Under the pieces are notes generated by a model. It saw nothing but the letters and a program-made list of their open reading frames with translations, searched no databases and had not been told where the DNA came from. Both the position numbers and the translations under genes were made by a program. Below, piece after piece: positions 30,133 to 43,032 of a stretch of 64,000 nucleotides of DNA (positions are counted from its first letter, which is position 1; every line of letters begins with the position of its first letter). Source of the DNA: Nitrososphaerota archaeon (GTDB taxonomy: Archaea; Thermoproteota; EX4484-205; JAAOZP01); assembly GCA_011605725.1 (NCBI GenBank), contig JAAOZP010000011.1, positions 116,474-180,473 of the forward strand, in the 5' to 3' direction.

Positions 30133-31083
30133 TCAGTCTTCTCGCTCCACAGCCATCCTGATAAGGTTTAACGCGTCTTCAAGCTTAATCTCTCGTTTAA
30201 ACTGAATGCCGCCTATGTTTGCCCTACCCCCTGCTTTCACACCATTATTTTTCAACAGTTCTGTGTAAACCCTGTTCAAGTCTGAACGGCGTGCGGCTAT
30301 GGTTGCGGAAACCGGTTTACCCTTTTTTAAACCTAAGCAGACAACCACTTTCTCACTCTCTTCAAGTTCAAACATCAGCATTCTTCTCGCAGCAGCCTCA
30401 AGCTGGTCAGTAACATTATACGTGAAGTATGTAATGCTTCCTATTTTACCTATTGAGTTTCTCAGCTTTTCAATCTTGTCCTCTACAAGGCTCCATCTGG
30501 CTAGCTCGCTTTCAACCCATTTCAGAATACTATTCCAGTCTGAATCGTAAACCATACGCGTTAAGCTGCTTCTAAAGTCTCCCCTCATACTGTTTAAAAG
30601 GAATGCTTTATTCATTTTTACGGCTAACTCTGAAACAATGCTTCCAGAATCTATCTCGTCAACAGCCTCCAACATCTTGATACCGTCCTCGTTAAACTCC
30701 AGAAGACCTTTGAAAACGCTGAAAACAAGACTAGAAACACTTCTAATACTGCCGTTAAACAATATTTCCCTGGTTTTTCTATGTCCATTGTAAAGCGCTA
30801 TTACAGGTGTTTGACCATGATGATCTATCAAAACATTGCTACCAATATAAGTCAAGCCTTTGCTCAAAGGGAGCTCTATAAGTATGCTTCTTGAGGCTTT
30901 CACAGTGTCGATCTCACTTGGTTTAGGATAGTGGATTCTGGAAACATCCGCGCCTAGAGCCCTCGCCGTTATTGAGGCAGCGAAAATCCCGTCTAGATCA
31001 GGATCGCTCAGTATCATGTACTCCGGGTTATCCTCGACGAAGCGGAAGAGTATTTGCCTCGCCTCCTCCTGATCAAAGCTCAA
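30133..31083 (-). CDS. DHH-family phosphoesterase
   Basis: DPDLDG, IDHH, DEIDSG, and C-terminal AGGRANIGG (DHHA1-like). Confidence 0.75.
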   Translation of the reverse strand: MSFDQEEARQILFRFVEDNPEYMILSDPDLDGIFAASITARALGADVSRIHYPKPSEIDTVKASRSILIELPLSKGLTYIGSNVLIDHHGQTPVIALYNGHRKTREILFNGSIRSVSSLVFSVFKGLLEFNEDGIKMLEAVDEIDSGSIVSELAVKMNKAFLLNSMRGDFRSSLTRMVYDSDWNSILKWVESELARWSLVEDKIEKLRNSIGKIGSITYFTYNVTDQLEAAARRMLMFELEESEKVVVCLGLKKGKPVSATIAARRSDLNRVYTELLKNNGVKAGGRANIGGIQFKREIKLEDALNLIRMAVERED

Positions 31084-31180: not shown

Positions 31181-32083
31181 TCAAAAAATTTGAAGTATGC
31201 TTAGCAGGATGATGATTGTTCCGAGTGCCAGACAATAGTAGGAGAACTTGTGAAAGCTATGTTTAACAACGTAACTCCTAACCGTTCCTAGGGCAAGGTA
31301 GCCGACGACAGCGGTTACCAGAACCCCTAGGCTAATCATCCAAAACTCTTGCTCGAAACTAATTTCTTGAAGCTTGACGAGGCTTCCGCCTATTATGCTT
31401 GGGATTGATAAGAGCAGGGAAAACCGGTAGGCCTCCTCATACTCAACCCCTCTAAGCAGCCCGGTTGAAACAGTTATTCCTGTTCTGGATATCCCGGGTG
31501 TGATTGCAGCAGCCTGAGAAAACCCTATCAGGAATGCGTCTAAAGCACTTAGTTTCCTAACCGGTTTAGCACGCCTCGTTGAATACAGGATTAAGCCGTT
31601 GAGAAACATCGCAACCCCTGTTGCGAAAAGGCTTTGAAACAAAGACTCGAAGAAGCTTTTAAGAAAAAAGCCTGCTAAGCCGATGGGAATTGTGCCAAGC
31701 GTAATGTATACGAGCATTCTGCCTTCTTCCCCTGAGAAATCGAGCCTAAAAACTGTCCTGACAATGGATTGTAAATCCTTTCTCAGAAACACTGCTACTC
31801 CAATGAGGGTTCCCAGATGAAGCACAATGTCGAAAGCAACGGAGACTTTTATGTTAAACAGCTCCTGCACTATTACTAGGTGCCCAGTGCTTGAAACCGG
31901 AAACCATTCTGTTAAACCTTGAACGAGGCTTAGGCAAACCGTCTCCAAGATTCCCGTTAAGCCTATTCTTACCTGTTTGGAAAAATCAACGGTTAAAACT
32001 GCCTCGGCGAAAATAACTAGCGTTTGAATAAACAGGCAAGTAGTGAGGATAAACGTTAGCGACCGGCGTTTTCTCGTGTCCAC
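31181..32083 (-). CDS. uppP: Undecaprenyl/polyprenyl-diphosphate phosphatase (BacA/UppP) with an N-terminal hydrophobic extension
   Basis: VQGLTEWFPVSSTGH, LHLGT, IGFSQAAAITPGISRTG, FSLLLSIP. GTG 32083 chosen as start to avoid overlapping the upstream gene; the ORF track starts at 32158. Confidence 0.9.
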   Translation of the reverse strand: MDTRKRRSLTFILTTCLFIQTLVIFAEAVLTVDFSKQVRIGLTGILETVCLSLVQGLTEWFPVSSTGHLVIVQELFNIKVSVAFDIVLHLGTLIGVAVFLRKDLQSIVRTVFRLDFSGEEGRMLVYITLGTIPIGLAGFFLKSFFESLFQSLFATGVAMFLNGLILYSTRRAKPVRKLSALDAFLIGFSQAAAITPGISRTGITVSTGLLRGVEYEEAYRFSLLLSIPSIIGGSLVKLQEISFEQEFWMISLGVLVTAVVGYLALGTVRSYVVKHSFHKFSYYCLALGTIIILLSILQIF

Positions 32084-32120
32084 AGCCTTTCGTCGCAACC
32101 ATCTTATAAAAGTTTTACAG

Positions 32121-35100
32121 TTAATAATTTTCAACAAACTTTCTTGCCGATATCTCATACATCTTTCCCTCAGCGTCGAACGTTATAATGTTTTTGTTCA
32201 GCCGTATTGCTGCTATCGCGAGCGCTGAGCTTAACAGGCCGTCGTCTGAATCTAGACATACAGCGTCTATCGTGAGGATTTCTTCAGAAAGCCTTTCGAC
32301 AAGCGTATTCATGTCTCTCGATTCAACCCTCCTAACCTCGATCGTCGGAGGCCAGATGCCTTCAGACCTAACTTTCCTCCTCAATTCCTTCACCTTGCCG
32401 CTTACATCCGATCTCGAATAGATGATTAAAAATTGAGGGCGGTATTTTCTAACAACTGTTGCGGCATAATCCACTGACTCGCCCATTACTACAGCCACGT
32501 TAAATCTTAATGTAGACCATTCAAGGACGAGTTTCCTAACATGAGTTATAACTTCATGCGCATTTGACTCGAGCATAACTGCGTAGAGGGATTTCGTATG
32601 AACGTAAGCCGAGTATTCTTCCCCGTCCTTCTTAACTTCGATCGTGGTTAAGGCTGTAAACGGCCTATTGCCTCCCTTTCCATACCTGAAACTCACCGAA
32701 TACGAGACATTTCCATTCTCATCCAGTTTTTCCTCACGTGAAACATCTGAAATTACCAGTTCTAACGCTGTACTGCTTTGAGGCAATCTTTCGTAAAGAT
32801 AGTTAACAAACGTTTCAACCTTCTCCGAAGGAATCCTCACCGGGATTCGAACCGTCCACACTCCTTCTTTAACTACTTTTTCTTCCATTCTCCATCTTCT
32901 TAAAAGCGAGGGAGTTGCTATTTTCGCAGCCTTTAAGGCAGGAATTGTCGAAGAAACCATGGCTGTCAGAAATGCCATAAGTATTAGGGAGAACATATCT
33001 AGAGGAGTAGTTTTCACGTCAATGGGTATGATCATGTTAGAGACATCAAACACTTTGAATATGATCATGCTCAATATATAGCCAATACCACCACCGATGA
33101 AACCGAATACTCCTGCCTCCACTATGAACAGGCTGGAAATATGAGTGGGGTTTAAGCCTACAGATGAAAAAATGAATATTTCATTCCTCCTTTCGTAAAC
33201 CAGCGTGTAGAACAGCAGCGTAATGTTTAACACAGTAATGATAACTGGGATGAGAACCGATATGCCAAAGACCTCGACAGAACCTCCTCTGAAGTAGTAG
33301 GTTATGCCTTCTGAGCTCGGCATAGTTATGACTGAATAGTTAGCGAGCAAAGCCAATCTTCTTGAAACCTCTCTCGCCTGCGCATTGTCTTCGAATGTGC
33401 AGTAGAGCGCGGAAACATAGCCGCCTAATCTTTGAGCGGTGAAAGCATCCGTTATCAAGAGGTTGTCAGCAGGTACCGGCTGAGCGTTTTCAAAGCCTGG
33501 AAGAATATACATGGGCAGGAAATGGCTACCATCAGGCTCTTTTATCACGTTAACCGGCTCGCCATCAAATATGCCGACTACCTTTAGCCTTACACCTTTG
33601 AAAACAATGGTCATGCCCACGTCCACGTCTGCTCTGTTTGCCAAATACCTGCTTATGAGAACAGCATTACTGTTGTTGAACAGGCTTTCTATTGCATGCT
33701 CCGGGTATGTAGCGCTCTTAATAAGGTCTAGAGATGGATCTCCGGGCGAAACTCCTCTAACCCCATAGATCGGTACCTCGCTAACATAGTCTAGAGCGCC
33801 GTACGCAACGGGGGTTATCACCTTATAGTCTATTCTTGAAACCTCTCTCTGCGCACCTATGAAGCTAAAATCTTCAAGCGCGAGTGGGCCGGAAGGCTTG
33901 ATCACCATCGACACCGGAGGCTTATCGGCTGGCCACGTTTTCGCCACCATAACAGCGTTAGTCGTTAGGGATACCCTTATTGAAGTCAGCGTGGATATTG
34001 CTATGATCATTATTGTAATGGAGACAAGAGTAAGTGTAGTTCTTAGCTTCCTCTTTTTCAAGTTTCCAATAGAGTATGAAATAGCGATCAATAAGGCAGG
34101 TATCAGTGAAACTCCTCGCTCGCTCTTTATTTCAAGAAAGTAGGGAGCTATAAATACAATTAGAAACATGAATATAACAATATAGATTCCTGTCTGAAGC
34201 TCCAATACTGTGATTCTTGAAAGACCTGGGAACACCTGGTAAGCTATAGTCATTAAAACGATGAATGTAATCACCGTCAACATTGCGTATTGATCCTTCC
34301 TCTCTGCAATTATCGAGCCGATGCATAAGGATAGGATCGCAACAATCACAAATACTATAATCTGGTTGGTTCGCGTTTCCCTCAAAATATTTTGAATATT
34401 ACTGATTATTAATATGCTGCTCATCACGGCTTCTTGCTGATACGCCAGTATCTTAATTGGGTCAGTGGCATTTAAAATAGCTAAACGGAATCTTTCAATC
34501 TGCTCCAACCTGTAAAGCTCCAGGCCTACGTAGAGCCCAATATTCCTAGTTTCTTCTACATGTCTTTCAGCGGATTCAACGGTTTTGTTGACGAGAGTTT
34601 GATAGGACTTTACTTGAAGTAAAGCAGGCTGGTCTAAGTAGGTTTTAGCATTTTTGCTTAACCTAATTGGCCGAGTACTATTCCCTATTTCCAATACTGT
34701 TCTTCTCCCACCGACAGTGATTGAAACCAGTATCCATAAGTCTGTTTCAGAAGGAACTATTAGGGTGTTTCCAGTTATGTTTAGCAGACCAAGTAGCGGC
34801 AGATGGCTTGAATCATAATTCAGTATCAGTTGATTAAGCCGCGTCTCATTAAGAATGAGGACACGCATTTCCTGAGTTGGAATCAGCAGGTCGAAAGGGG
34901 AAGGAACAACAGCTAGGACCTTTGCAACCGCTCCTGGACATAGGTTTATTTCCACGTTCTTGGTTTCTCCGACTGATAGTTTTCCTAGGCTTATTATTTG
35001 AGGCACATAAGTATCTTTTTCGTTTAGAGAAGGACCTATGATCCTTATTTCTGAGCCAGAGGGCACTGCTATCGTCGTTTCATTCCAAACTCTGGCGACC

Positions 35101-37496
35101 GTATACGTCTCGTTCATGAACACTAGGAAAAACTGGGGTTCCCTTGGCTTCGGGTTTAACGTTATTTTAAGCATTGATGATGGTTTTACGACGAAGCGTT
35201 TAGAATTTGTGTCGATTCTGGTGCCGTTTGCTAGGAGCAGCTCCGTTGAAACCTCCAGCACATGTTCAGAGTCAACATGGTGCGGCGCCTCGAAGACGCG
35301 TTTTACAGCGAGATAGGCGGGTGATGATGAAGAGGGTATTTCAACGCTCATGTTCTCACTGACTAGAGTTTTATTGCAGGTTATGTCGTTCAACCTCCAG
35401 CTTAGCACTGCGTTGAAAGGCTCCTGAAACACGTCGTTCACAAGCCAGAGCCTAATCCTAACCGTTGAGCCGGGGAGAAAGAATAGGGATGTCAGATCAT
35501 GCCTATAGTCTCCGTCAACCATTATTACGGTATGCACAGGGTTGAAAGCATTCATAACCTCGTAGTAAGATTCTTTCTTAAATCCGTAGGAATCTACGAT
35601 TGAGCCGCTGACGAGCAGGGGGTAGTCTGTAAGTGGAAGAACATTAACCCCTATGGAAATATTGTACCTAAGTATTCTTGCCCTGTCTATAGCATGCCTC
35701 AAAACTAGAGATTGATACTTCTGGCTTAGCTCAATTAAGCTGGAGAGGTTTTTAGCCAAATCTCTCCAGTAGGTGTTTAGGAAAACCGGGTCAAGCCCCT
35801 CTGCCTGAAGAAGCGTAAGAACCTGCTCATAGGGCAGGTTTTGAGCCTCTACCCAGAATGGAGAGTTTAAACTGGGTAAGCCCACTGGACTAACTATGTT
35901 TGGAAAGGACTCCTTGTAATGCAGATAGTCAACCCAGCTTCCCGTTCCCCAACCATAGTTCACGAACCTATCAACATAATCGTATGTCTCAACGTATGAT
36001 AGAACCATGATTCTCTTATTCACCTCCTTAACCAGGACGTTCAGATCACGGTCAAGGTAGAAATTGGTTCCAGAACCATAGTATGGTGACTCCCTGTTCA
36101 GCCACGGCACGAGGGTGTGGGGACAGACTATTGTTATTGAGGGATAGTTGTAAGTTAGCAGTAACAGTTCAACAAGCTGCATCTTCACGAGCCTAGCATA
36201 GTTTTCAGAGTAGTCTAGAGTAGGGTAGGCGCCTATCAGGGGGAAGTCCAGCTGGACGATGAAGCCTTTCAAAGAAGTTAACTCGTAGAACTCTTTCGGC
36301 TCAACATGCGCGAACGACCTTAAGAAATTAACGTTGGCTTCTCTCAGCAGGCTGAGCGTCTCATTCATTTTAAAGCTACCGCTCGTATCAGTAAGCCATT
36401 CGAGCCTAGAGAAATAAGACCCACCCCTTAGAAAAACACTTCTACCGTTTACTTTAATGTAAGGATTCTTCCGGGTAATCGAACCCTCTAAGAAACGTAC
36501 TCCAAATAATGTTTCAACCGACCCGGCGTACTCATCACCATGGTGCAGACTAATGTTGAGAAGGTAAACGTTTGGAACACCAATATCCCATGGGAACCAG
36601 TATGCTGGGTCCCGGAGGGAGATGCTTAAAGTTTCCCACCTTCTTTCCCAGGCAGAAAGCTTTATGCTGAACGACTGTTCTAAGCCGGCTGTGTTGTTGG
36701 GGCCAAAGCCCTTTATTCTTACGGATGCTACAAAGCTATCGTCAACATCCCCCTTGTTCTGAAGTAGAATACGCAGGTTTAAGGAGGCAGGGTTCGAGTA
36801 CTGTGCAATATCAATCAAGACCAGGTTAATAACTGGGTTCAGTGTCCCGACGAGGGTAACGCCTCCAGATATCCCGATGTAACTGTTGCGGAGGTTTGGA
36901 AGAACCTCTGAGAAAGAGTATATGCCCATCGGGTAAACTCTGGATTCATACGTTTCTTGGGTTGGAGCCTCTAAGTATAGGGTCAGTAAGTTGACACCGT
37001 CCCGAACAACAATTTCATCTATGTCGAAGAAGAATTGGGAAAAATAACCCACATGCTCCCCCAAATAGAAGCCGTTCAGCCAGACTTTAGCAGCAACCCA
37101 GACACCTGAGAAGACAAGCCTCAGCCTCTGCCCCCTCATTTCACTAGGCACTGTGAATAATTTTCTTACCCACAGCGAGCTGTTTGACCTGGTTGACTTA
37201 AAAAGGAAGGGTGCTTCAACCCTGCTCCATGAAGAATCATCATAACAAGGATCATAGTAGAGATTAATGTTTCCAGGGTCGAAAGCGTCAACCTTGTAAC
37301 TCCACTTTCCAGTCAATTCATGTTTAGAAAGATAGAAGTAGTCAAATGGCGCGAGGTACGAGGAAACCTTATCCACCAGGTTTTCAGAGGGTTCTATGAA
37401 GAAATACCGTAAACCAGGAAGAATCAGAGCCACTATTAACATCGATACTGAGACTACTGTCAGAAGCGGCTCTGCAATTCTCCTGGCCACCATCAC
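32121..37496 (-). CDS. 1791-aa fusion: GH2-like domain (apparently inactive) + FtsX/MacB-like permease + C-terminal CARF-like domain
   Basis: GH2 motifs LTGKW, KVWLNGFYLGEHVGYFSQF, WFPWDIGVPNVY, FGVR, VNGRSVFLRG, LREANVNFLR, NYPSI. FtsX motifs NLKKRKLRTTLTL, VYERRNEIFIFSSVGLNPTHI, EAGVFG, IPALKAAKIATPS. The last 127 aa follow a CARF-like beta/alpha pattern. Confidence 0.8.
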   Translation of the reverse strand: MMVARRIAEPLLTVVSVSMLIVALILPGLRYFFIEPSENLVDKVSSYLAPFDYFYLSKHELTGKWSYKVDAFDPGNINLYYDPCYDDSSWSRVEAPFLFKSTRSNSSLWVRKLFTVPSEMRGQRLRLVFSGVWVAAKVWLNGFYLGEHVGYFSQFFFDIDEIVVRDGVNLLTLYLEAPTQETYESRVYPMGIYSFSEVLPNLRNSYIGISGGVTLVGTLNPVINLVLIDIAQYSNPASLNLRILLQNKGDVDDSFVASVRIKGFGPNNTAGLEQSFSIKLSAWERRWETLSISLRDPAYWFPWDIGVPNVYLLNISLHHGDEYAGSVETLFGVRFLEGSITRKNPYIKVNGRSVFLRGGSYFSRLEWLTDTSGSFKMNETLSLLREANVNFLRSFAHVEPKEFYELTSLKGFIVQLDFPLIGAYPTLDYSENYARLVKMQLVELLLLTYNYPSITIVCPHTLVPWLNRESPYYGSGTNFYLDRDLNVLVKEVNKRIMVLSYVETYDYVDRFVNYGWGTGSWVDYLHYKESFPNIVSPVGLPSLNSPFWVEAQNLPYEQVLTLLQAEGLDPVFLNTYWRDLAKNLSSLIELSQKYQSLVLRHAIDRARILRYNISIGVNVLPLTDYPLLVSGSIVDSYGFKKESYYEVMNAFNPVHTVIMVDGDYRHDLTSLFFLPGSTVRIRLWLVNDVFQEPFNAVLSWRLNDITCNKTLVSENMSVEIPSSSSPAYLAVKRVFEAPHHVDSEHVLEVSTELLLANGTRIDTNSKRFVVKPSSMLKITLNPKPREPQFFLVFMNETYTVARVWNETTIAVPSGSEIRIIGPSLNEKDTYVPQIISLGKLSVGETKNVEINLCPGAVAKVLAVVPSPFDLLIPTQEMRVLILNETRLNQLILNYDSSHLPLLGLLNITGNTLIVPSETDLWILVSITVGGRRTVLEIGNSTRPIRLSKNAKTYLDQPALLQVKSYQTLVNKTVESAERHVEETRNIGLYVGLELYRLEQIERFRLAILNATDPIKILAYQQEAVMSSILIISNIQNILRETRTNQIIVFVIVAILSLCIGSIIAERKDQYAMLTVITFIVLMTIAYQVFPGLSRITVLELQTGIYIVIFMFLIVFIAPYFLEIKSERGVSLIPALLIAISYSIGNLKKRKLRTTLTLVSITIMIIAISTLTSIRVSLTTNAVMVAKTWPADKPPVSMVIKPSGPLALEDFSFIGAQREVSRIDYKVITPVAYGALDYVSEVPIYGVRGVSPGDPSLDLIKSATYPEHAIESLFNNSNAVLISRYLANRADVDVGMTIVFKGVRLKVVGIFDGEPVNVIKEPDGSHFLPMYILPGFENAQPVPADNLLITDAFTAQRLGGYVSALYCTFEDNAQAREVSRRLALLANYSVITMPSSEGITYYFRGGSVEVFGISVLIPVIITVLNITLLFYTLVYERRNEIFIFSSVGLNPTHISSLFIVEAGVFGFIGGGIGYILSMIIFKVFDVSNMIIPIDVKTTPLDMFSLILMAFLTAMVSSTIPALKAAKIATPSLLRRWRMEEKVVKEGVWTVRIPVRIPSEKVETFVNYLYERLPQSSTALELVISDVSREEKLDENGNVSYSVSFRYGKGGNRPFTALTTIEVKKDGEEYSAYVHTKSLYAVMLESNAHEVITHVRKLVLEWSTLRFNVAVVMGESVDYAATVVRKYRPQFLIIYSRSDVSGKVKELRRKVRSEGIWPPTIEVRRVESRDMNTLVERLSEEILTIDAVCLDSDDGLLSSALAIAAIRLNKNIITFDAEGKMYEISARKFVENY

Positions 37497-37594: not shown

Positions 37595-39937
37595 ATGCCT
37601 GTGAAAACACCTGCCAAGGTTATAGAAATATTTAAAAAACACTACTACATTCTGTCTCTGCTGCTGCTCTTCATATACGCATTACTTTCTGTGAAAACAA
37701 TTTTTCTAGAAGGCATGATCCCGGGCTGGGATAACCCTGTGCACTACGTGAACTCCCATCTCACAGCGCTCTACATGTTTCCCAGGCTGGATATTCTAGG
37801 CTGGGATCCTTTCAACCAGTTCGGCTGGGTTTTCAACCTATACTACAACCCGGGCATGAGCATCTTCGTCTCCTCCATATACCACTCATTTCTAGGCTTC
37901 GTAGACACTCTGTTAGCGTACAAGATCGCTTTCTTCCTAGCGTATTTCCTACCGGCTCCCGCCACATTCATGTTCGTCCACGCTTTAACAGAGGATAAAA
38001 TCGCATCCCTAGTTGCCTCACTGCTTTCAATAACAACCTTCACCGAGGAATCTGCGTGGTTTGACGCTGGTTTAAAGCAAATGTACTACATAGGCATGTG
38101 GCCAGAGAGACTGGGCCTAGTTTTCGTTTTTTTCAGCATAGCCCTCTTAGCCTACTCCTTTAAATCTAAATCCATAGGGAAAACCCTGTTCCTCACAGGA
38201 CTAGGATCTCTGTTCTTCACAATGGCTGTTCTAACCCATGTAATGATGGGGATTTCAGCGGCTTTAATGGCATTATTACTATGGCTATTTGTTTTCCTAA
38301 AAACAGTAGTAGAGTTCCCAAGTTCTACTAGTCAAGGACTCGTATCTCTCTTAAAAACAGAAGGCGTTGTCTTGGTGAAGTTCACATCCATAGGCTTGCT
38401 TTCCTTGGGAATGGCTGCTTTCTGGATGGTCCCGCTTTTTCAAACACTAGAGACGTATCACAGTTTCCCAGCCGTCACGTGGTCCACTGGACCATATATT
38501 TTTGGAGAAACATTTGCCAGTTTACCATGGTACCTCCTGGTTTTTTATTGCCTAGGTGCTTTCGCACCAGTTTACGCAGGAAGTAAAGTCTCCTATTCAT
38601 CCTTAGCTGCATCCGCAGTCATCCTCATTCTGCAGTTCCTGAACCTAGTTAACCTGTACGATGGCAACATTGGACTGAGGCTTATTTTCGCGTTCGCGGT
38701 GTCACTGGTTTTGCTGGTTTCCTCCAAGGACCTCTACGTGCCGTTCCTGCTTGCATCCATATCTATCCTTGGTTTTCTGGCAACAGGACCCGATACATAC
38801 CTTGTGTGCTTCGGCCCGTTTAGACTCGACCTGCTTAGTCTAATACCGTTCGCAAGAAGCTTCGGCTACTCCAAGTTTAATGCTCCAGTCAGGATTCTAA
38901 TACTCAGCTTAGCAGCCCTAGGTTTCTCGAAGATTTTAAGCAAGCTCTACACGCTCTCCAAAACAACAAGATTTCCAGCAGTTTTCTCGATAATAGCCGG
39001 ATTGCTAGCGTTCTTGATCCTCAATTCTTCGCTTAGTGCCCAATTACAGAATACTGACCTCGCCTACCCTTTTTCCAAGGAGAAGGTTTTCAAACTAACC
39101 TCAGACTACCCGGGCTTCAAAAAAGTTGACGAGCTTACAGGCTGGGTTGAGAACAATGTTCCCGGAGACACTTACATACTGTTTCAGGATACTTTGGATT
39201 TCGGCGGCAGCGAGGATTTTCAGACATCCCACTATGTCTATATTGCTTCAATAAGGCTAAAAAGGCCTATTATTGGCGGTTGTTTTGGGACTCGCTATAT
39301 AACTAATCCTTATGCCCTTACCGAGGGAGGGTATCTTCTAAGCTTCCCCATTGAAAAGCTGATTAAGAACGATCTGATTAAGCGACTGATGGATGAGCTT
39401 GGAATCGGCTACATCGCTATCCATGATTCGAGACTAATAAATTTCTTAAACTCCTCCACCGATTTTTGCCTCGAGTATTACAATGGCTTGTACGCAGTTT
39501 TTCGGAAAACTAATTCCTCAAAGATTGTTTTCATCCAGGGAGAGGGGAGAGTCGAATCAGTAGACTTCACCATAAACAAGATTGAAGCCACAGTATCCGG
39601 CGTGTCTGGAAATGCTTCATACCTGATAGTTAGACAGGTTAACTTTCCAGGCTTCACCGCCGAAGCAGACGGGGAAATTATTTCTATAGACACATATTAT
39701 CCTAAGCTGCCAAACGTAATAACGGGTTGGCAGGGAATCCAGCCGGTATTCAACTGGAGAATACCGTTCATCAAGGTGAAAATACCAGCCGGGTCTAACA
39801 GGGTAACATTAAGGTTCAGTATTCATACCGTGGGAAGCGACATATCAAAAATAGCCTGGACAGTGTTCCTCTGTCTTCTGATCTCCGGCATAGTCCTGCC
39901 GACAGTAGGGAAGTTGCGCAAAAAATGGCGAAAGTAA
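37595..39937 (+). CDS. Polytopic membrane protein, GT-C-like (PTPS-related/YfhO-like) glycosyltransferase
   Basis: GWDNPVH after TM1, GWDP...YYNPG, more than 10 hydrophobic helices, extracellular domain with a YfhO-like tail (VNFPGFTAEADG), final TM helix. Confidence 0.7.
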   Translation: MPVKTPAKVIEIFKKHYYILSLLLLFIYALLSVKTIFLEGMIPGWDNPVHYVNSHLTALYMFPRLDILGWDPFNQFGWVFNLYYNPGMSIFVSSIYHSFLGFVDTLLAYKIAFFLAYFLPAPATFMFVHALTEDKIASLVASLLSITTFTEESAWFDAGLKQMYYIGMWPERLGLVFVFFSIALLAYSFKSKSIGKTLFLTGLGSLFFTMAVLTHVMMGISAALMALLLWLFVFLKTVVEFPSSTSQGLVSLLKTEGVVLVKFTSIGLLSLGMAAFWMVPLFQTLETYHSFPAVTWSTGPYIFGETFASLPWYLLVFYCLGAFAPVYAGSKVSYSSLAASAVILILQFLNLVNLYDGNIGLRLIFAFAVSLVLLVSSKDLYVPFLLASISILGFLATGPDTYLVCFGPFRLDLLSLIPFARSFGYSKFNAPVRILILSLAALGFSKILSKLYTLSKTTRFPAVFSIIAGLLAFLILNSSLSAQLQNTDLAYPFSKEKVFKLTSDYPGFKKVDELTGWVENNVPGDTYILFQDTLDFGGSEDFQTSHYVYIASIRLKRPIIGGCFGTRYITNPYALTEGGYLLSFPIEKLIKNDLIKRLMDELGIGYIAIHDSRLINFLNSSTDFCLEYYNGLYAVFRKTNSSKIVFIQGEGRVESVDFTINKIEATVSGVSGNASYLIVRQVNFPGFTAEADGEIISIDTYYPKLPNVITGWQGIQPVFNWRIPFIKVKIPAGSNRVTLRFSIHTVGSDISKIAWTVFLCLLISGIVLPTVGKLRKKWRK

Positions 39938-40785
39938 AGGATTTTTTAGTCGAAGCAAGGATTCTAGACTGGTATAAGAATCTACTTATACTCGTTGCAC
40001 CATTCTTCGGCGGAAAGCTTCTGTACCCAGTCTATTATCCTAGCCTTTTATTGGGGTTTCTAGCCCTTTCAGCCACCTCCAGTGCCTGCTACGTGATTAA
40101 TGATATTAAAGATGCCGCTCGGGATGCGTACCACCCTAGGAAAAAACATAGGCCTGTGGCTAGTGGGAAAATGAGTAGGGCTTCGGCGTTAATCTTCTCG
40201 ATAACCCTACTGGGGTTTTCCCTCTTCACCTCATACTGGGTAAGCATCATCTTTCTAGTACTGTGCATCTCCTTATTCCTAAACTCGATCATTTACACTT
40301 TTTTCCTAAGGGATGTAGCATGGTTAGACTTACTTAGCATATCTCTTAATTATATCATTAGGTCACTAGCAGGAGCAGAAATAGTTAACGTCTATGTTTC
40401 GCCATGGCTGTTGATCAGCGTCTTCTATACTTCAATGCTCCTTGCATTATCGAAAAGAAGAGAGGAATTAACCGCTTTGAATGAGGCTGAACATTATAGG
40501 AAGTCTTTCAAGCACTATGACGTGACTCTTATAGATCAAGCGATCACCGTCTTCTCAACCCTAATAATAATCTCTTATTCTCTCTATACTTTTCACTCGC
40601 CTTATGCAGATGGTCCTTTGCCTTTTACGATTCCGATAATAACGCTAATAGTATTGCAGTTCATTTCTGTTTCGAAAAAAACCGGGGAAGCCGGAATAAT
40701 AAGAAGACTCCTGTCCAGCAGGACCATCGTTACAAGCCTCCTTATTTGGCTTGTAATAATGTTTTACCTAATATATTTAACATGA
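39925..40785 (+). CDS. UbiA-family polyprenyl-phosphate phosphoribosyltransferase (DPPR synthase-like)
   Basis: RILDWYKNLL, YVINDIKDAARDAYHPRKKHRPVASG, SPWLL, LALSKRREEL, YSLYT; overlaps the upstream gene. Confidence 0.85.
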   Translation: MAKVKDFLVEARILDWYKNLLILVAPFFGGKLLYPVYYPSLLLGFLALSATSSACYVINDIKDAARDAYHPRKKHRPVASGKMSRASALIFSITLLGFSLFTSYWVSIIFLVLCISLFLNSIIYTFFLRDVAWLDLLSISLNYIIRSLAGAEIVNVYVSPWLLISVFYTSMLLALSKRREELTALNEAEHYRKSFKHYDVTLIDQAITVFSTLIIISYSLYTFHSPYADGPLPFTIPIITLIVLQFISVSKKTGEAGIIRRLLSSRTIVTSLLIWLVIMFYLIYLT

Positions 40786-40837: not shown

Positions 40838-41992
40838 GTGGAGCGGGAGGAGTTTATCAGCATGGTCTACCTTTATGAACAAGATTTGACGAGACACGAT
40901 ATTCTTAAACGAGTTGGCAGCATGGAGCAGATTGCCGGGGTGAAAATAGCAGAATTCTCCAATGGCTTTGAACGCGGTGTCAAAGCCGCAATAGTAAGAA
41001 ATGGAGAACTAGGTTTTCTAGTGGCAATAGACCGGGCTATGGATATAGTGAATGCAGAGTATAAAGGAGTACCGTTAAGCTGGATTAGCCCTACCGGGAT
41101 AGTTGCACCCGGTTTCTATGAGCCAGAAGGACTCGGATGGCTTCGTGGCTTTCCAGGAGGACTAGTCACCACATGTGGTTTAACGTACATGGGAGCACCT
41201 ACCTTTGACAACGGGGAGAGTCTTGGGCTACATGGACGCATATCCTATTCACCAGCCAATTTACTGCATGCAGACGCCTATTGGGATGGAGAAAATTACA
41301 GAATACTTTTGGAAGGCGAAATTAAAGAATCTAAAGTTTTTGAGCCCAATATCACGCTTAGGAGACGAATATCGACAACTCTTGGGGAAAGACGCATAGT
41401 GATACGTGATGTTGTAACAAACTGTGGATGGAGGGCACAGCCCCTGATGATACTATATCACATCAACATAGGTTTCCCACTACTGGATAAGAATGCTAGA
41501 TTCCTGTCGACGACCGGTTGCTTTACTCCGAGAGATCAGGAAGCCATGGAAGACGCGGAAGATTTTGCAAGCATTCATGAGCCAAGACCAGGTTATAGAG
41601 AAAAAGTATATTTTCACGACATGCTTGTTGACGATGATGGAAACGCTTATGCTGCGATAGTAAATGATAAGCTTCTCGGAGGTCTAGGGGTATACGTGAA
41701 ATACAGCAAGCATGAGCTGCCCAGGTTCGTACAGTGGAAAATGCTCGGCGAGGGAACATACGTTATGGGAATGGAGCCTGCGAATAGCCTTGTAATGGGA
41801 AGGGGCAAGGAACGGGAATGGGGAACATTACAATATATTATGCCTTGGGAAACAAAAGAATTCCATATTGAAATAGGTGTTCTTTCAAGCAATGAGATAA
41901 CTGCGTTCGAAGAGAAAATAAGTAGAATAGTGGGAGCTAAAAAACCCCGCATGTTTGAAAATGTTGAGGAATTCGTTAAAAATTTAAGATAA
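40838..41992 (+). CDS. Aldose 1-epimerase-like protein (DUF4432 type)
   Basis: DRAMDI, WLRGFPGGLVTTCGL, GLHGRIS, MILYHINIGFPLLD, YVMGMEP. The start may be ATG 40862. Confidence 0.8.
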   Translation: MEREEFISMVYLYEQDLTRHDILKRVGSMEQIAGVKIAEFSNGFERGVKAAIVRNGELGFLVAIDRAMDIVNAEYKGVPLSWISPTGIVAPGFYEPEGLGWLRGFPGGLVTTCGLTYMGAPTFDNGESLGLHGRISYSPANLLHADAYWDGENYRILLEGEIKESKVFEPNITLRRRISTTLGERRIVIRDVVTNCGWRAQPLMILYHINIGFPLLDKNARFLSTTGCFTPRDQEAMEDAEDFASIHEPRPGYREKVYFHDMLVDDDGNAYAAIVNDKLLGGLGVYVKYSKHELPRFVQWKMLGEGTYVMGMEPANSLVMGRGKEREWGTLQYIMPWETKEFHIEIGVLSSNEITAFEEKISRIVGAKKPRMFENVEEFVKNLR

Positions 41993-42042
41993 CGGTACTT
42001 ATTTAAAGTTTATAAGCTTCTAGGAACTCTTAGGAGAATTGA

Positions 42043-43032
42043 ATGAATGAAATAAATGTTGCAATAATTGGTTGCGGAGGAATTGCATCAGTTCATGCGG
42101 AAAGATTAATTAAAATAGAAGGTGTTCGACTAAAAGCGTTCGTCGACATCGACGAGAAAAGAGCAAAATCTTTTTCGGAAAAATTCGGAGGCCATTACTA
42201 TAACAGCATAGACCAGCTAGTTAAAAACGAGCATATAGATGCACTGTTCATAACGACACCTCCTTTTGCAAGAGGTGATGAAGTGAAAGCCATAGAAAAG
42301 GGCATAGCAGTATTCTTTGAAAAACCAGTTGCTCTCAACATGCGCAAAGCCGAGGAAATCCTGGACTCTATAAGAAGGTATTCAGTCATAAACAGCGTGG
42401 GATACATGTGGCGATACCTGGATATTTCCTCCGTTGCCAAGGAAGAGGTTGTGAAGAACAGTCCCACTGCCATGGTTCTTGGTCAATACATAGATCCTTT
42501 CTGGTTTCCCCCTAAACACTGGTGGCTCTATAAGGATAAGGGGGGTGGACAGGTAGTGGAGCAAGCAACCCATGTCTTTGATTTAGCAAGGTATCTTGAG
42601 GGCGAGGTTTCCCGCGTATATGCGGAGATAGACAACAGAATAGCTGGGAAATTTATATATTCTGACATGACGGCTGAAGATAGTTCGATTGTAAGCCTAA
42701 GGTTTAAGACGGGCGCTGTGGGAGTTATAGTTAGCTCATGCGTCAGCCAAAATACTTTCACAGGGACTCTTCTCAGGTTAATAACTAGAAACATTGTTGT
42801 CGAGCATCTTGGTCATTCGAAAATCCTGAGGATTTATGAAAAGAACAGGATTCAGGAATTCAGGTCCCCTGTAGACCCATATTTCGAAGAGGATAAAGTA
42901 TTCATAGAGGCCGTAAAAACAGGAGATACGAGTAAAATCAAGTCAAGCTTTGAAGACGCGGTAAAGACTTTGAAAATAACTCTGGCTGCTAACGAGTCTG
43001 CAAAAACAGGGAAAGCAATAAGCCTAGAGTAG
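42043..43032 (+). CDS. Gfo/Idh/MocA family oxidoreductase
   Basis: IIGCGGIA, FEKPVA, GGGQVVEQATHVFD. Confidence 0.9.
   Translation: MNEINVAIIGCGGIASVHAERLIKIEGVRLKAFVDIDEKRAKSFSEKFGGHYYNSIDQLVKNEHIDALFITTPPFARGDEVKAIEKGIAVFFEKPVALNMRKAEEILDSIRRYSVINSVGYMWRYLDISSVAKEEVVKNSPTAMVLGQYIDPFWFPPKHWWLYKDKGGGQVVEQATHVFDLARYLEGEVSRVYAEIDNRIAGKFIYSDMTAEDSSIVSLRFKTGAVGVIVSSCVSQNTFTGTLLRLITRNIVVEHLGHSKILRIYEKNRIQEFRSPVDPYFEEDKVFIEAVKTGDTSKIKSSFEDAVKTLKITLAANESAKTGKAISLE

Follow-up and report, generated by a model that had tools for sequence, protein, structure and literature searches.

The window analyzed here, a 64,000-nucleotide stretch of contig JAAOZP010000011.1 (positions 116,474 to 180,473 of the forward strand), comes from a hot-spring archaeon, a Brockarchaeota-like member of the Thermoproteota. 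It encodes a giant protein that is a conserved eight-helix envelope protein with a type VII ATP-binding cassette (ABC) membrane module of the MacB/LolC/FtsX kind. Outside the membrane the protein carries a GH2 module in which both catalytic glutamates are replaced, and its cytoplasmic tail ends in a domain predicted to have the CARF fold. By sequence profile it is a member of the catalogued family CARF_m8, with no architecture-level difference. We tentatively favor reading it as an ATP-driven mechanotransmission device served by a shared orphan ATPase, in which the dead mannosidase would act like a lectin on a glycan of the neighboring pathway and the CARF fold would serve a ligand other than cyclic oligoadenylate (cOA). 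The identity and anatomy of the protein are secure; its mechanism is what we infer.

Family membership and conservation

The giant gene lies at 32121..37496 on the minus strand and reads as one uninterrupted open reading frame (ORF) of 1,791 codons from a GTG, as the first-pass annotation of this DNA had it. An identical protein found by protein database search (P0002) is 1,790 residues long, which makes the ATG at 37493, one codon further on, the probable true start. The protein matches the PADLOC-DB v2 profile PDLC01990, named CARF_m8--CARF_Beta-galactosidase_LolE_TM, end to end (residues 11-1788 against profile positions 9-1787 of 1,791; 1,200.6 bits, E 0). The profile of a shorter form, PDLC01991 (CARF_m8--CARF_LolE_TM), also matches, over residues 972-1774. 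All three modules in the family name, GH2, LolE/FtsX and the CARF fold, are found on the single chain. The first-pass annotation knew of no description of this architecture; that view was wrong, because PADLOC-DB already holds an end-to-end profile. In the literature searched, no paper paired CARF with FtsX or named CARF_m8, and CARF with LolE returned only irrelevant matches. Going by the usage and the reference list of PMC12409355, the CARF_mN names trace to Makarova et al. 2020, NAR 48:8828.

About 25 full-length relatives of 1,774-1,810 residues share 31-92% identity with the giant protein. They come from independent NCBI, JGI, ENA and Logan assemblies and are annotated as Brockarchaeota, Thermoproteota or Nitrososphaerales metagenome-assembled genomes (MAGs). 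Their alignment is unbroken over every domain junction. Because so many independent assemblies carry the full-length fusion, an assembly chimera, which the first-pass annotation had named as a risk, is ruled out and the fusion is real. The tail was found in 15 of 21 related genomes. In a sample of 301 genomes from across the phylum, 31 have it, and in each case it terminates an ORF of 1,000-1,850 residues. Some members vary in their modules: the subclade P0022-24 stops directly after the first tail domain (CTD1) and lacks the CARF-fold domain (CTD2), as does the copy in genome G003, while P0025 and P0026 have a 290-residue insert in the barrel region.

Membrane module and topology

Topology was derived from hydropathy and from an AlphaFold2 model of residues 1040-1791 with a predicted local distance difference test score (pLDDT) of 82.7. 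The features of the giant gene, N terminus first, are the following (TM, transmembrane helix).

37410..37466, minus strand: N-terminal anchor helix, residues 11-29, preceded by Arg-Arg on the cytoplasmic side (hydropathy)
35517..37328, minus strand: extracellular GH2 module, residues ~57-660, with sugar-binding, Ig and TIM-barrel domains, beta-mannosidase-like (Pfam, NCBIfam, PDB search)
36102..36152, minus strand: GH2 acid/base site, residues 449-465, reading YNYPSITIVCPHTLVPW; active relatives have ...HNEPPW, so Glu is replaced by Leu
35871..35906, minus strand: GH2 nucleophile site, residues 531-542, reading FPNIVSPVGLPS; active relatives have FP(T/S)EFGAQSLPS, so Glu is replaced by Ile
34377..35516, minus strand: further extracellular sequence, residues 661-1040, beta-rich with many N-x-S/T sequons and a helical stalk to the membrane (reading of the sequence)
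34137..34376, minus strand: three extra TM helices, residues 1041-1063, 1067-1088 and 1097-1120, which return the chain to the cytoplasm (hydropathy, model)
33987..34106, minus strand: elbow helix, residues 1131-1148, KKRKLR patch and MacB-type TM1, residues 1150-1170 (model)
33267..33983, minus strand: MacB-like periplasmic core domain, residues 1172-1410 (Pfam, model, Foldseek)
32916..33263, minus strand: FtsX domain with TM2-TM4, residues 1412-1527, including the coupling-helix segment YERRNEIFIFSSVGLNPTHI, residues 1434-1453 (Pfam, model, Foldseek)
32508..32915, minus strand: invariant TPSLLRRW linker, residues 1528-1535, and CTD1, residues 1539-1663, a KA1/TBP-like alpha+beta domain (model)
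32130..32507, minus strand: CTD2, residues 1664-1789, a CARF-fold Rossmann-like domain with motif I G-E-S (1672-1674) and beta4 loop CLDSDDGLLS (1747-1756)

The N-terminal membrane anchor and the FtsX/MacB permease core of the first-pass annotation are borne out by hydropathy, Pfam and the model. The modules it listed were correct, but it missed the three extra TM helices and the second cytoplasmic domain. Pfam matches MacB_PCD (PF12704) to residues 1154-1381 with 27.2 bits, at a cut-off of 27, and FtsX (PF02687) to residues 1414-1526 (E 1.2e-15). NCBIfam gives partial matches to the LolC/E, MacB and ADOP permeases. The modeled helices of the FtsX domain are TM2 (1412-1435), the coupling helix (1437-1446), TM3 (1450-1485) and TM4 (1498-1527). 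The top Foldseek matches of the model are LolC/E, MacB, the pneumococcal Spr0694-0695 transporter, HrtB, YtrF, YbbP, FtsX and BceB, and the isolated periplasmic domains of MacB, LolE and YknZ are also returned. These structural relatives all operate with an ABC ATPase.

Two cytoplasmic segments hardly vary in 34 relatives, some with as little as 23% identity. One is the coupling segment YERRNEIFIFSSVGLNP (1434-1450), with the pattern E-R-x-x-E-I...G-x-N-P, whose E, R, E, G, N and P show little or no variation; the other is the TPSLLRRW that follows TM4. The cytoplasmic faces are flanked by basic residues: RR ahead of the anchor, KKRKLR ahead of TM1 and RRWR following TM4. The ectodomain contains 16 N-x-S/T sequons, the core domain two and the tail one. 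This spread of sequons together with the positive charges places the GH2 module outside and the CARF-fold domain inside, on opposite sides of the membrane as the first-pass annotation proposed.

Like MacB, LolCDE, FtsEX-EnvC/PcsB, HrtBA, YbbAP and BceAB, the giant protein has the FtsX four-helix fold, a core domain between TM1 and TM2, an elbow helix and a coupling helix. FtsEX likewise pairs such a module with a wall or glycan hydrolase fold. Unlike these type VII ABC systems, the giant protein has its hydrolase fold fused in cis and catalytically dead, four extra helices, an ectodomain of ~1,000 residues, no ATPase in the operon, and KA1-like and CARF-fold domains after TM4. We considered whether the anchor and the three extra helices could be a degenerate first FtsX module, which would make the protein a BceB/YbbP-like pseudo-dimer. 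The topology fits this idea; weighing against it are the single FtsX domain found by Pfam and a TM2'-TM3' loop of six residues. The orphan permease family ADOP (TIGR03434) is also of FtsX type without an adjacent ATPase, and the giant protein matches it weakly (E 2.7e-6), with a score well short of the family cut-off. Two FtsX domains are present in ADOP proteins, whereas a single one is detectable in the giant protein.

The GH2 ectodomain

The GH2 module keeps the domain order of its family: sugar-binding, Ig and TIM-barrel. Pfam places Glyco_hydro_2_N at residues 104-173 and the Glyco_hydro_2 Ig domain at 235-334. NCBIfam gives partial matches to GH2 beta-galactosidases and beta-glucuronidases, and in a PDB sequence search GH2 enzymes align with E 1e-15 as far as the first strands of the TIM barrel. 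The Pfam scan returned no family match for residues 661-1040.

Both catalytic glutamates are lost in the clade to which the window protein belongs, which bears out the first-pass annotation in calling the module dead. At the acid/base position this clade reads Y-N-Y-P-S-...-C-P-H-T/V-L-P, with H-T-L-V-P in the window protein itself. At the nucleophile position it reads F-P-N-I/V-x-S/V-P, and the window protein P-N-I-V-S-P-V-G. Relatives with the same layout at 30-40% identity (P0029, P0046, P0047, P0048, P0049 and P0053) keep HNEPPW and (T/S)E(F/L)GAQS. The barrel of P0048 is closest to GH2 beta-mannosidases, 5n6u (E 1e-12) and 6bye, and its N-E and T-E-F-G-A-Q-S align to N-N-E and S-E-Y-G-L-Q-S of those enzymes. 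A barrel segment N-x-x-R-x-x-H-x-x-P is present in dead and live forms alike (NFLRSFAHVEP in the window protein). Because both catalytic residues are gone while this segment is kept, the alignment identifies the window protein as a pseudo-mannosidase derived from an active fusion, and retained sugar binding is plausible. Compared with the GH2 beta-mannosidases (PDB 5n6u, 6bye, 2vqu), the domain order is the same and the active relatives align at both catalytic Glu, whereas the window clade has Leu for the acid/base Glu and Ile for the nucleophile, and the module is a loop between membrane helices.

Some related genomes encode two copies of the giant gene, among them G018 (tails at C14:18665-19450 and C22:112189-112980) and likewise G020. 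In these genomes one tail is 63-65% and the other 31% identical to that of the window. We read dead and live GH2 forms as coexisting in both, because the 31% copy falls within the identity range of the catalytically intact P0029-type relatives.

The cytoplasmic tail

The tail was modeled separately over residues 1528-1791 (pLDDT 84.4). Where the first-pass annotation saw a 127-residue extra C-terminal domain, that domain equals CTD2 (126 residues), but the tail is 264 residues long and comprises CTD1 and CTD2. CTD1 is structurally similar to KA1, AMPK C-terminal, TBP-like and BamC-N domains, with Z 9-10, a level that common arrangements also reach. At least four other giant FtsX ORFs of the genome contain CTD1 as well, and so do archaeal FtsX clusters of the ESM Atlas.

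A structure search independent of Foldseek compared CTD2 with 48,161 representative chains, and the top 16 rows were all CARF proteins (Z 10.2-14.4). The best matches were Csa3 (Z 14.4; root-mean-square deviation 2.8 over 122 residues), Can2 (14.0) and VC1899 (13.8), and Card1, Csm6, Sso2081, Cad1 and Cam1 were also among the 16. The best non-CARF Rossmann match was MurG, at Z 8.6. Foldseek (probability 1.00) and the ESM Atlas agree, and at the level of the predicted fold the CARF-like domain of the first-pass annotation is borne out.

Sequence-level support for the assignment is marginal. A PDB sequence search with the tail alone gave no meaningful match. Pfam did not match CTD2 of the window protein and gave weak, scattered matches over 40 members (HFX_2341_N in 4 of 40, CARF_Card1 in 1 of 40). 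A CTD2 profile searched against the PDB returned marginal CARF matches among designed Rossmann proteins (7z55, E 0.004; Sso2081, E 0.005; Can2, E 0.03). Alignment of this profile by hhalign to the Csx1 and Cas_NE0113 proteins of the same genome was not significant.

CARF domains carry a small or polar residue in a G-x-S/T motif after strand 1 (motif I), and a basic residue in a motif of the T/S-G-G-T-K or D-x-T-H-G type after strand 4 (motif II). The strand-1 loop of CTD2, VVMGES (1669-1674), has a CARF-like G-E-S, and most of 40 diverse members retain the Ser. The strand-4 loop, L-D-S-D-D-G-L-L-S, is invariant in all GH2-fused members and has three acidic residues and no Lys or Arg. CTD2 thus lacks the canonical motif II; shorter family members carry S/T-G-G-type loops. 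Since the strand-4 loop is invariant in the GH2-fused members, the CTD2 pocket appears to be under selection, but it is acidic and without the usual basic residue. A reading of DSDDG as a PRPP (phosphoribosyl pyrophosphate)-binding loop was rejected, as the sequence misfits the phosphoribosyltransferase pattern.

A candidate ATPase and nine further giant FtsX fusions

The window contains no ABC ATPase, and the nearest one on the contig is ~100 kb away. The first-pass annotation was right that none is nearby, but the weight it put on this absence does not hold, as a search of the rest of the genome for an orphan LolD/MacB-type ATPase, which it had suggested, found one.

G000:C11:54087-54869 = L013:7088-7870, minus strand: orphan LolD/FtsE/MacB-type ABC ATPase with no permease neighbor

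Genome-wide, there are 45 ABC-ATPase matches and 13 FtsX-domain ORFs. Three small FtsX genes adjoin their own ATPases. The other ten are giants of 852-1,791 residues without an adjacent ATPase, the window protein included. The orphan ATPase clusters closely with the three operon ATPases, with 61% identity to one of them, and its best model scores are to LolD, DevA, YbbA, FtsE and MacB. Its Walker A, signature, Walker B and H-loop motifs are intact. Its neighbors are RLI/ABCE1, Cgi121, triose-phosphate isomerase (TPI) and a purine phosphoribosyltransferase. Orthologues with 72-96% identity are found in 20 of the 21 relatives. Five relatives from four genera retain the HGPRT-Cgi121-ATPase-RLI-TPI cluster, and in them no FtsX gene lies within 6 kb. 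A complex prediction for residues 1125-1791 with the orphan ATPase scored 0.33 and a control with chain 1 replaced scored 0.48, which is evidence neither way. The orphan ATPase is thus a putative partner of the giant protein.

The nine further giant FtsX-domain ORFs of the genome (852-1,610 residues) are those of L001 (C5:16514-20944), L002, L003 (C3:11481-16274) and L004-L009. At least five have an M28 peptidase ectodomain, in two cases together with a marginal match to the PA domain. The CTD1 tail is common to several of the nine, and the CARF-fold domain is missing from all of them. Comparable M28-FtsX giants are encoded in Bathyarchaeia and in a Verrucomicrobia MAG (P0030-P0035). No paper on a shared-engine FtsX arrangement was found in the literature searched, where FtsX with archaea, M28 and permease gave only an irrelevant match.

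Type III CRISPR-Cas in the genome

CARF domains are known as sensors of cOA in type III CRISPR defense. The genome has a type III CRISPR-Cas locus at about 3256-15481 of L015 (G000:C15:1-19000), on a 23-kb contig. It encodes an 883-residue Cas10 with GGDD at residue 652, five RAMP proteins, Csx1 (CARF and HEPN) and a Cas_NE0113 protein, so cOA could exist in this cell. The 19 kb read of this contig showed no repeat array. No cas gene lies near the giant gene in six loci (the window, L010, L011, L025, L026 and L027). Cas10 was found in only 3-4 of the 21 relatives, against 15 of 21 for the tail; the MAGs are 70-93% complete, and these counts thus mean not found rather than absent. The nucleotide second-messenger sensing proposed in the first-pass annotation is doubtful if taken as cOA-type, given the DSDDG loop without a basic residue, the lack of cas neighbors and the many genomes in which no Cas10 was found. 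Like Cam1 and other CARF-membrane effectors, the giant protein has a CARF fold attached to a membrane module. Cam1, however, is small, encoded in cas loci and binds cyclic tetra-adenylate (cA4), whereas the giant protein has an acidic loop, no cas linkage and an ABC-type membrane part.

Genomic neighborhood

The genes flanking the giant gene are the following.

37595..39937, plus strand: 780-residue polytopic membrane protein, YfhO/PTPS-related-like, a lead toward a GT-C type enzyme, divergent to the giant gene
39925..40785, plus strand: UbiA-family enzyme, decaprenyl-phosphate phosphoribosyltransferase-like (mycobacterial 8j8j, E 2.6e-26)
40838-43032, plus strand: DUF4432 protein (E 2e-104) and Gfo/Idh/MocA oxidoreductase, directly downstream of the UbiA gene
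31181..32158, minus strand: BacA/UppP polyprenyl-diphosphate phosphatase, listed ORF of 325 residues, directly downstream of the giant gene and overlapping it by 38 nucleotides
30133-31083, minus strand: 316-residue protein with a weak DHHA1 match (E 4e-4), syntenic in L011 and L012 beside BacA and the nucleotidyltransferase

The 780-residue protein has no Pfam or PDB sequence match, and its ESM features are nearest those of YfhO and PTPS-related membrane proteins (score 0.98). Beside the 31%-identical P0029 gene, a homologue with 36% identity is placed divergently in the same way, and a homologue is also found beside P0018 (these neighbors have 763-782 residues). The YfhO-like protein may be functionally linked to the giant protein. 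Its gene overlaps the UbiA gene by 13 nucleotides, and the pair suggests a polyprenyl-phosphate-pentose glycosylation step in an archaeon. At the P0029 locus a PRPP synthase (L010:2265-3077, plus strand) is encoded two genes from the YfhO-like gene, which fits a PRPP-dependent polyprenyl-phosphate-ribose pathway. The BacA genes of relatives encode 283 residues and lie 0.6 kb from the giant gene; BacA in the window probably starts at an internal Met. Also nearby and syntenic are genes for a nucleotidyltransferase, a GT4 glycosyltransferase and a TrmB regulator. In L025, too, there is a Gfo/Idh/MocA gene, placed after the giant gene.

Discussion

The tentatively favored reading is of a mechanotransmission device like FtsEX, MacB, LolCDE and BceAB. 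The orphan ATPase (G000:C11:54087-54869) would dock on the coupling helix, and ATP turnover would move the extracellular domains. This same ATPase would probably also serve the nine other ATPase-less giant FtsX fusions of the genome. The dead mannosidase would be a lectin holding a surface or lipid-linked glycan, one made by the divergent YfhO-like glycosyltransferase, the UbiA-family enzyme, which resembles DPPR synthase, and UppP. The CARF-fold domain would play an accessory part, as an allosteric sensor of a cytoplasmic ligand that is not cOA. Several points weigh against this reading. That one ATPase serves ten permeases is an assumption. CTD1 begins ~10 residues past TM4, near the place where an ATPase would dock, and might replace it. 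In L025 and L026, two of the five loci read, no YfhO-like gene stands beside the giant gene. With its acidic DSDDG loop the CARF pocket may bind nothing. Judging by the subclade P0022-24 and G003, which do without CTD2, the core function does not depend on the CARF fold.

A rather unlikely alternative, essentially the model of the first-pass annotation, is a single-chain receptor or switch independent of any ATPase, in which a glycan outside or a ligand at the tail would shift the MacB-type helices, with CTD1 and CTD2 replacing the nucleotide-binding domain. No ATPase gene adjoins the giant gene or its relatives in the six loci, and CTD1, placed directly after TM4, is a common tail of ATPase-less giant FtsX paralogues and of archaeal FtsX clusters. 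The weak match to ADOP, an orphan NCBIfam family of duplicated FtsX permeases, points the same way, and the CARF domains of known effectors do work by ligand-driven rearrangement. However, the coupling-helix segment that contacts the ATPase is nearly invariant, every solved structural relative pairs with an ATPase, and a conserved, catalytically intact, permease-less LolD/FtsE-type ATPase is present in 20 of 21 relatives. The chain also lacks any output domain, for instance of the kinase, cyclase or DNA-binding kind. Distinctly unlikely is a passive surface scaffold, whose membrane module would merely anchor a lectin-like protein associated with the S-layer or glycan and whose cytoplasmic domains would be structural or vestigial. 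Such a role would suit a dead enzyme, and the same type of membrane module anchors varied ectodomains, five M28 peptidases among them, so that it looks like a general display platform. Yet a single helix would suffice as an anchor, and over 23-90% identity there is strong conservation of the cytoplasmic coupling segment, of TPSLLRRW and of the CARF loop, which would be unexpected in a mere anchor.

Highly improbable, finally, is a cOA-gated membrane effector of type III CRISPR-Cas, similar to Cam1, through which Cas10-made cOA would lead to envelope damage or remodeling and abortive infection. The CARF fold, with Z up to 14.4 and Cam1 among the matches, the place of the CARF_m8 profile in a defense-oriented library, and the type III locus with its intact-GGDD Cas10, Csx1 and Cas_NE0113 protein are consistent with it. 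Against it stand the absence of cas neighbors in the six loci and the spread of the tail (15 of 21 relatives) beyond that of Cas10 (3-4 of 21). The DSDDG loop has no Lys or Arg where canonical CARF domains carry T/S-G-G-T-K or D-x-T-H-G, and the neighborhood consists of housekeeping envelope-glycan genes. A further proposal, which is doubtful, sets the CARF fold outside antiviral defense: the acidic pocket would sense a metabolite other than cOA, and the MacB-type module would gate the pseudo-mannosidase on a surface glycan built on polyprenyl phosphate. If true, this would be housekeeping, inside-to-outside CARF signaling in archaeal envelope assembly.

What is new here is the orphan ATPase, the nine further giant FtsX fusions, the DSDDG loop without a basic residue and the lack of an association between the gene and Cas10. 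MacB/FtsX modules are established as force transmitters driven by ATP. With its ten giant ATPase-less FtsX fusions and one conserved orphan LolD-type ATPase, the genome hints at a shared-engine arrangement for archaeal surface enzymes. The conserved archaeal family joins a CARF fold, a MacB/FtsX module and a glycosidase fold that is live in some lineages and dead in others. Because of its envelope-glycan neighborhood and the lack of a link to Cas10, it may be a tractable example of how a CARF fold came to be recruited for housekeeping control across the envelope.

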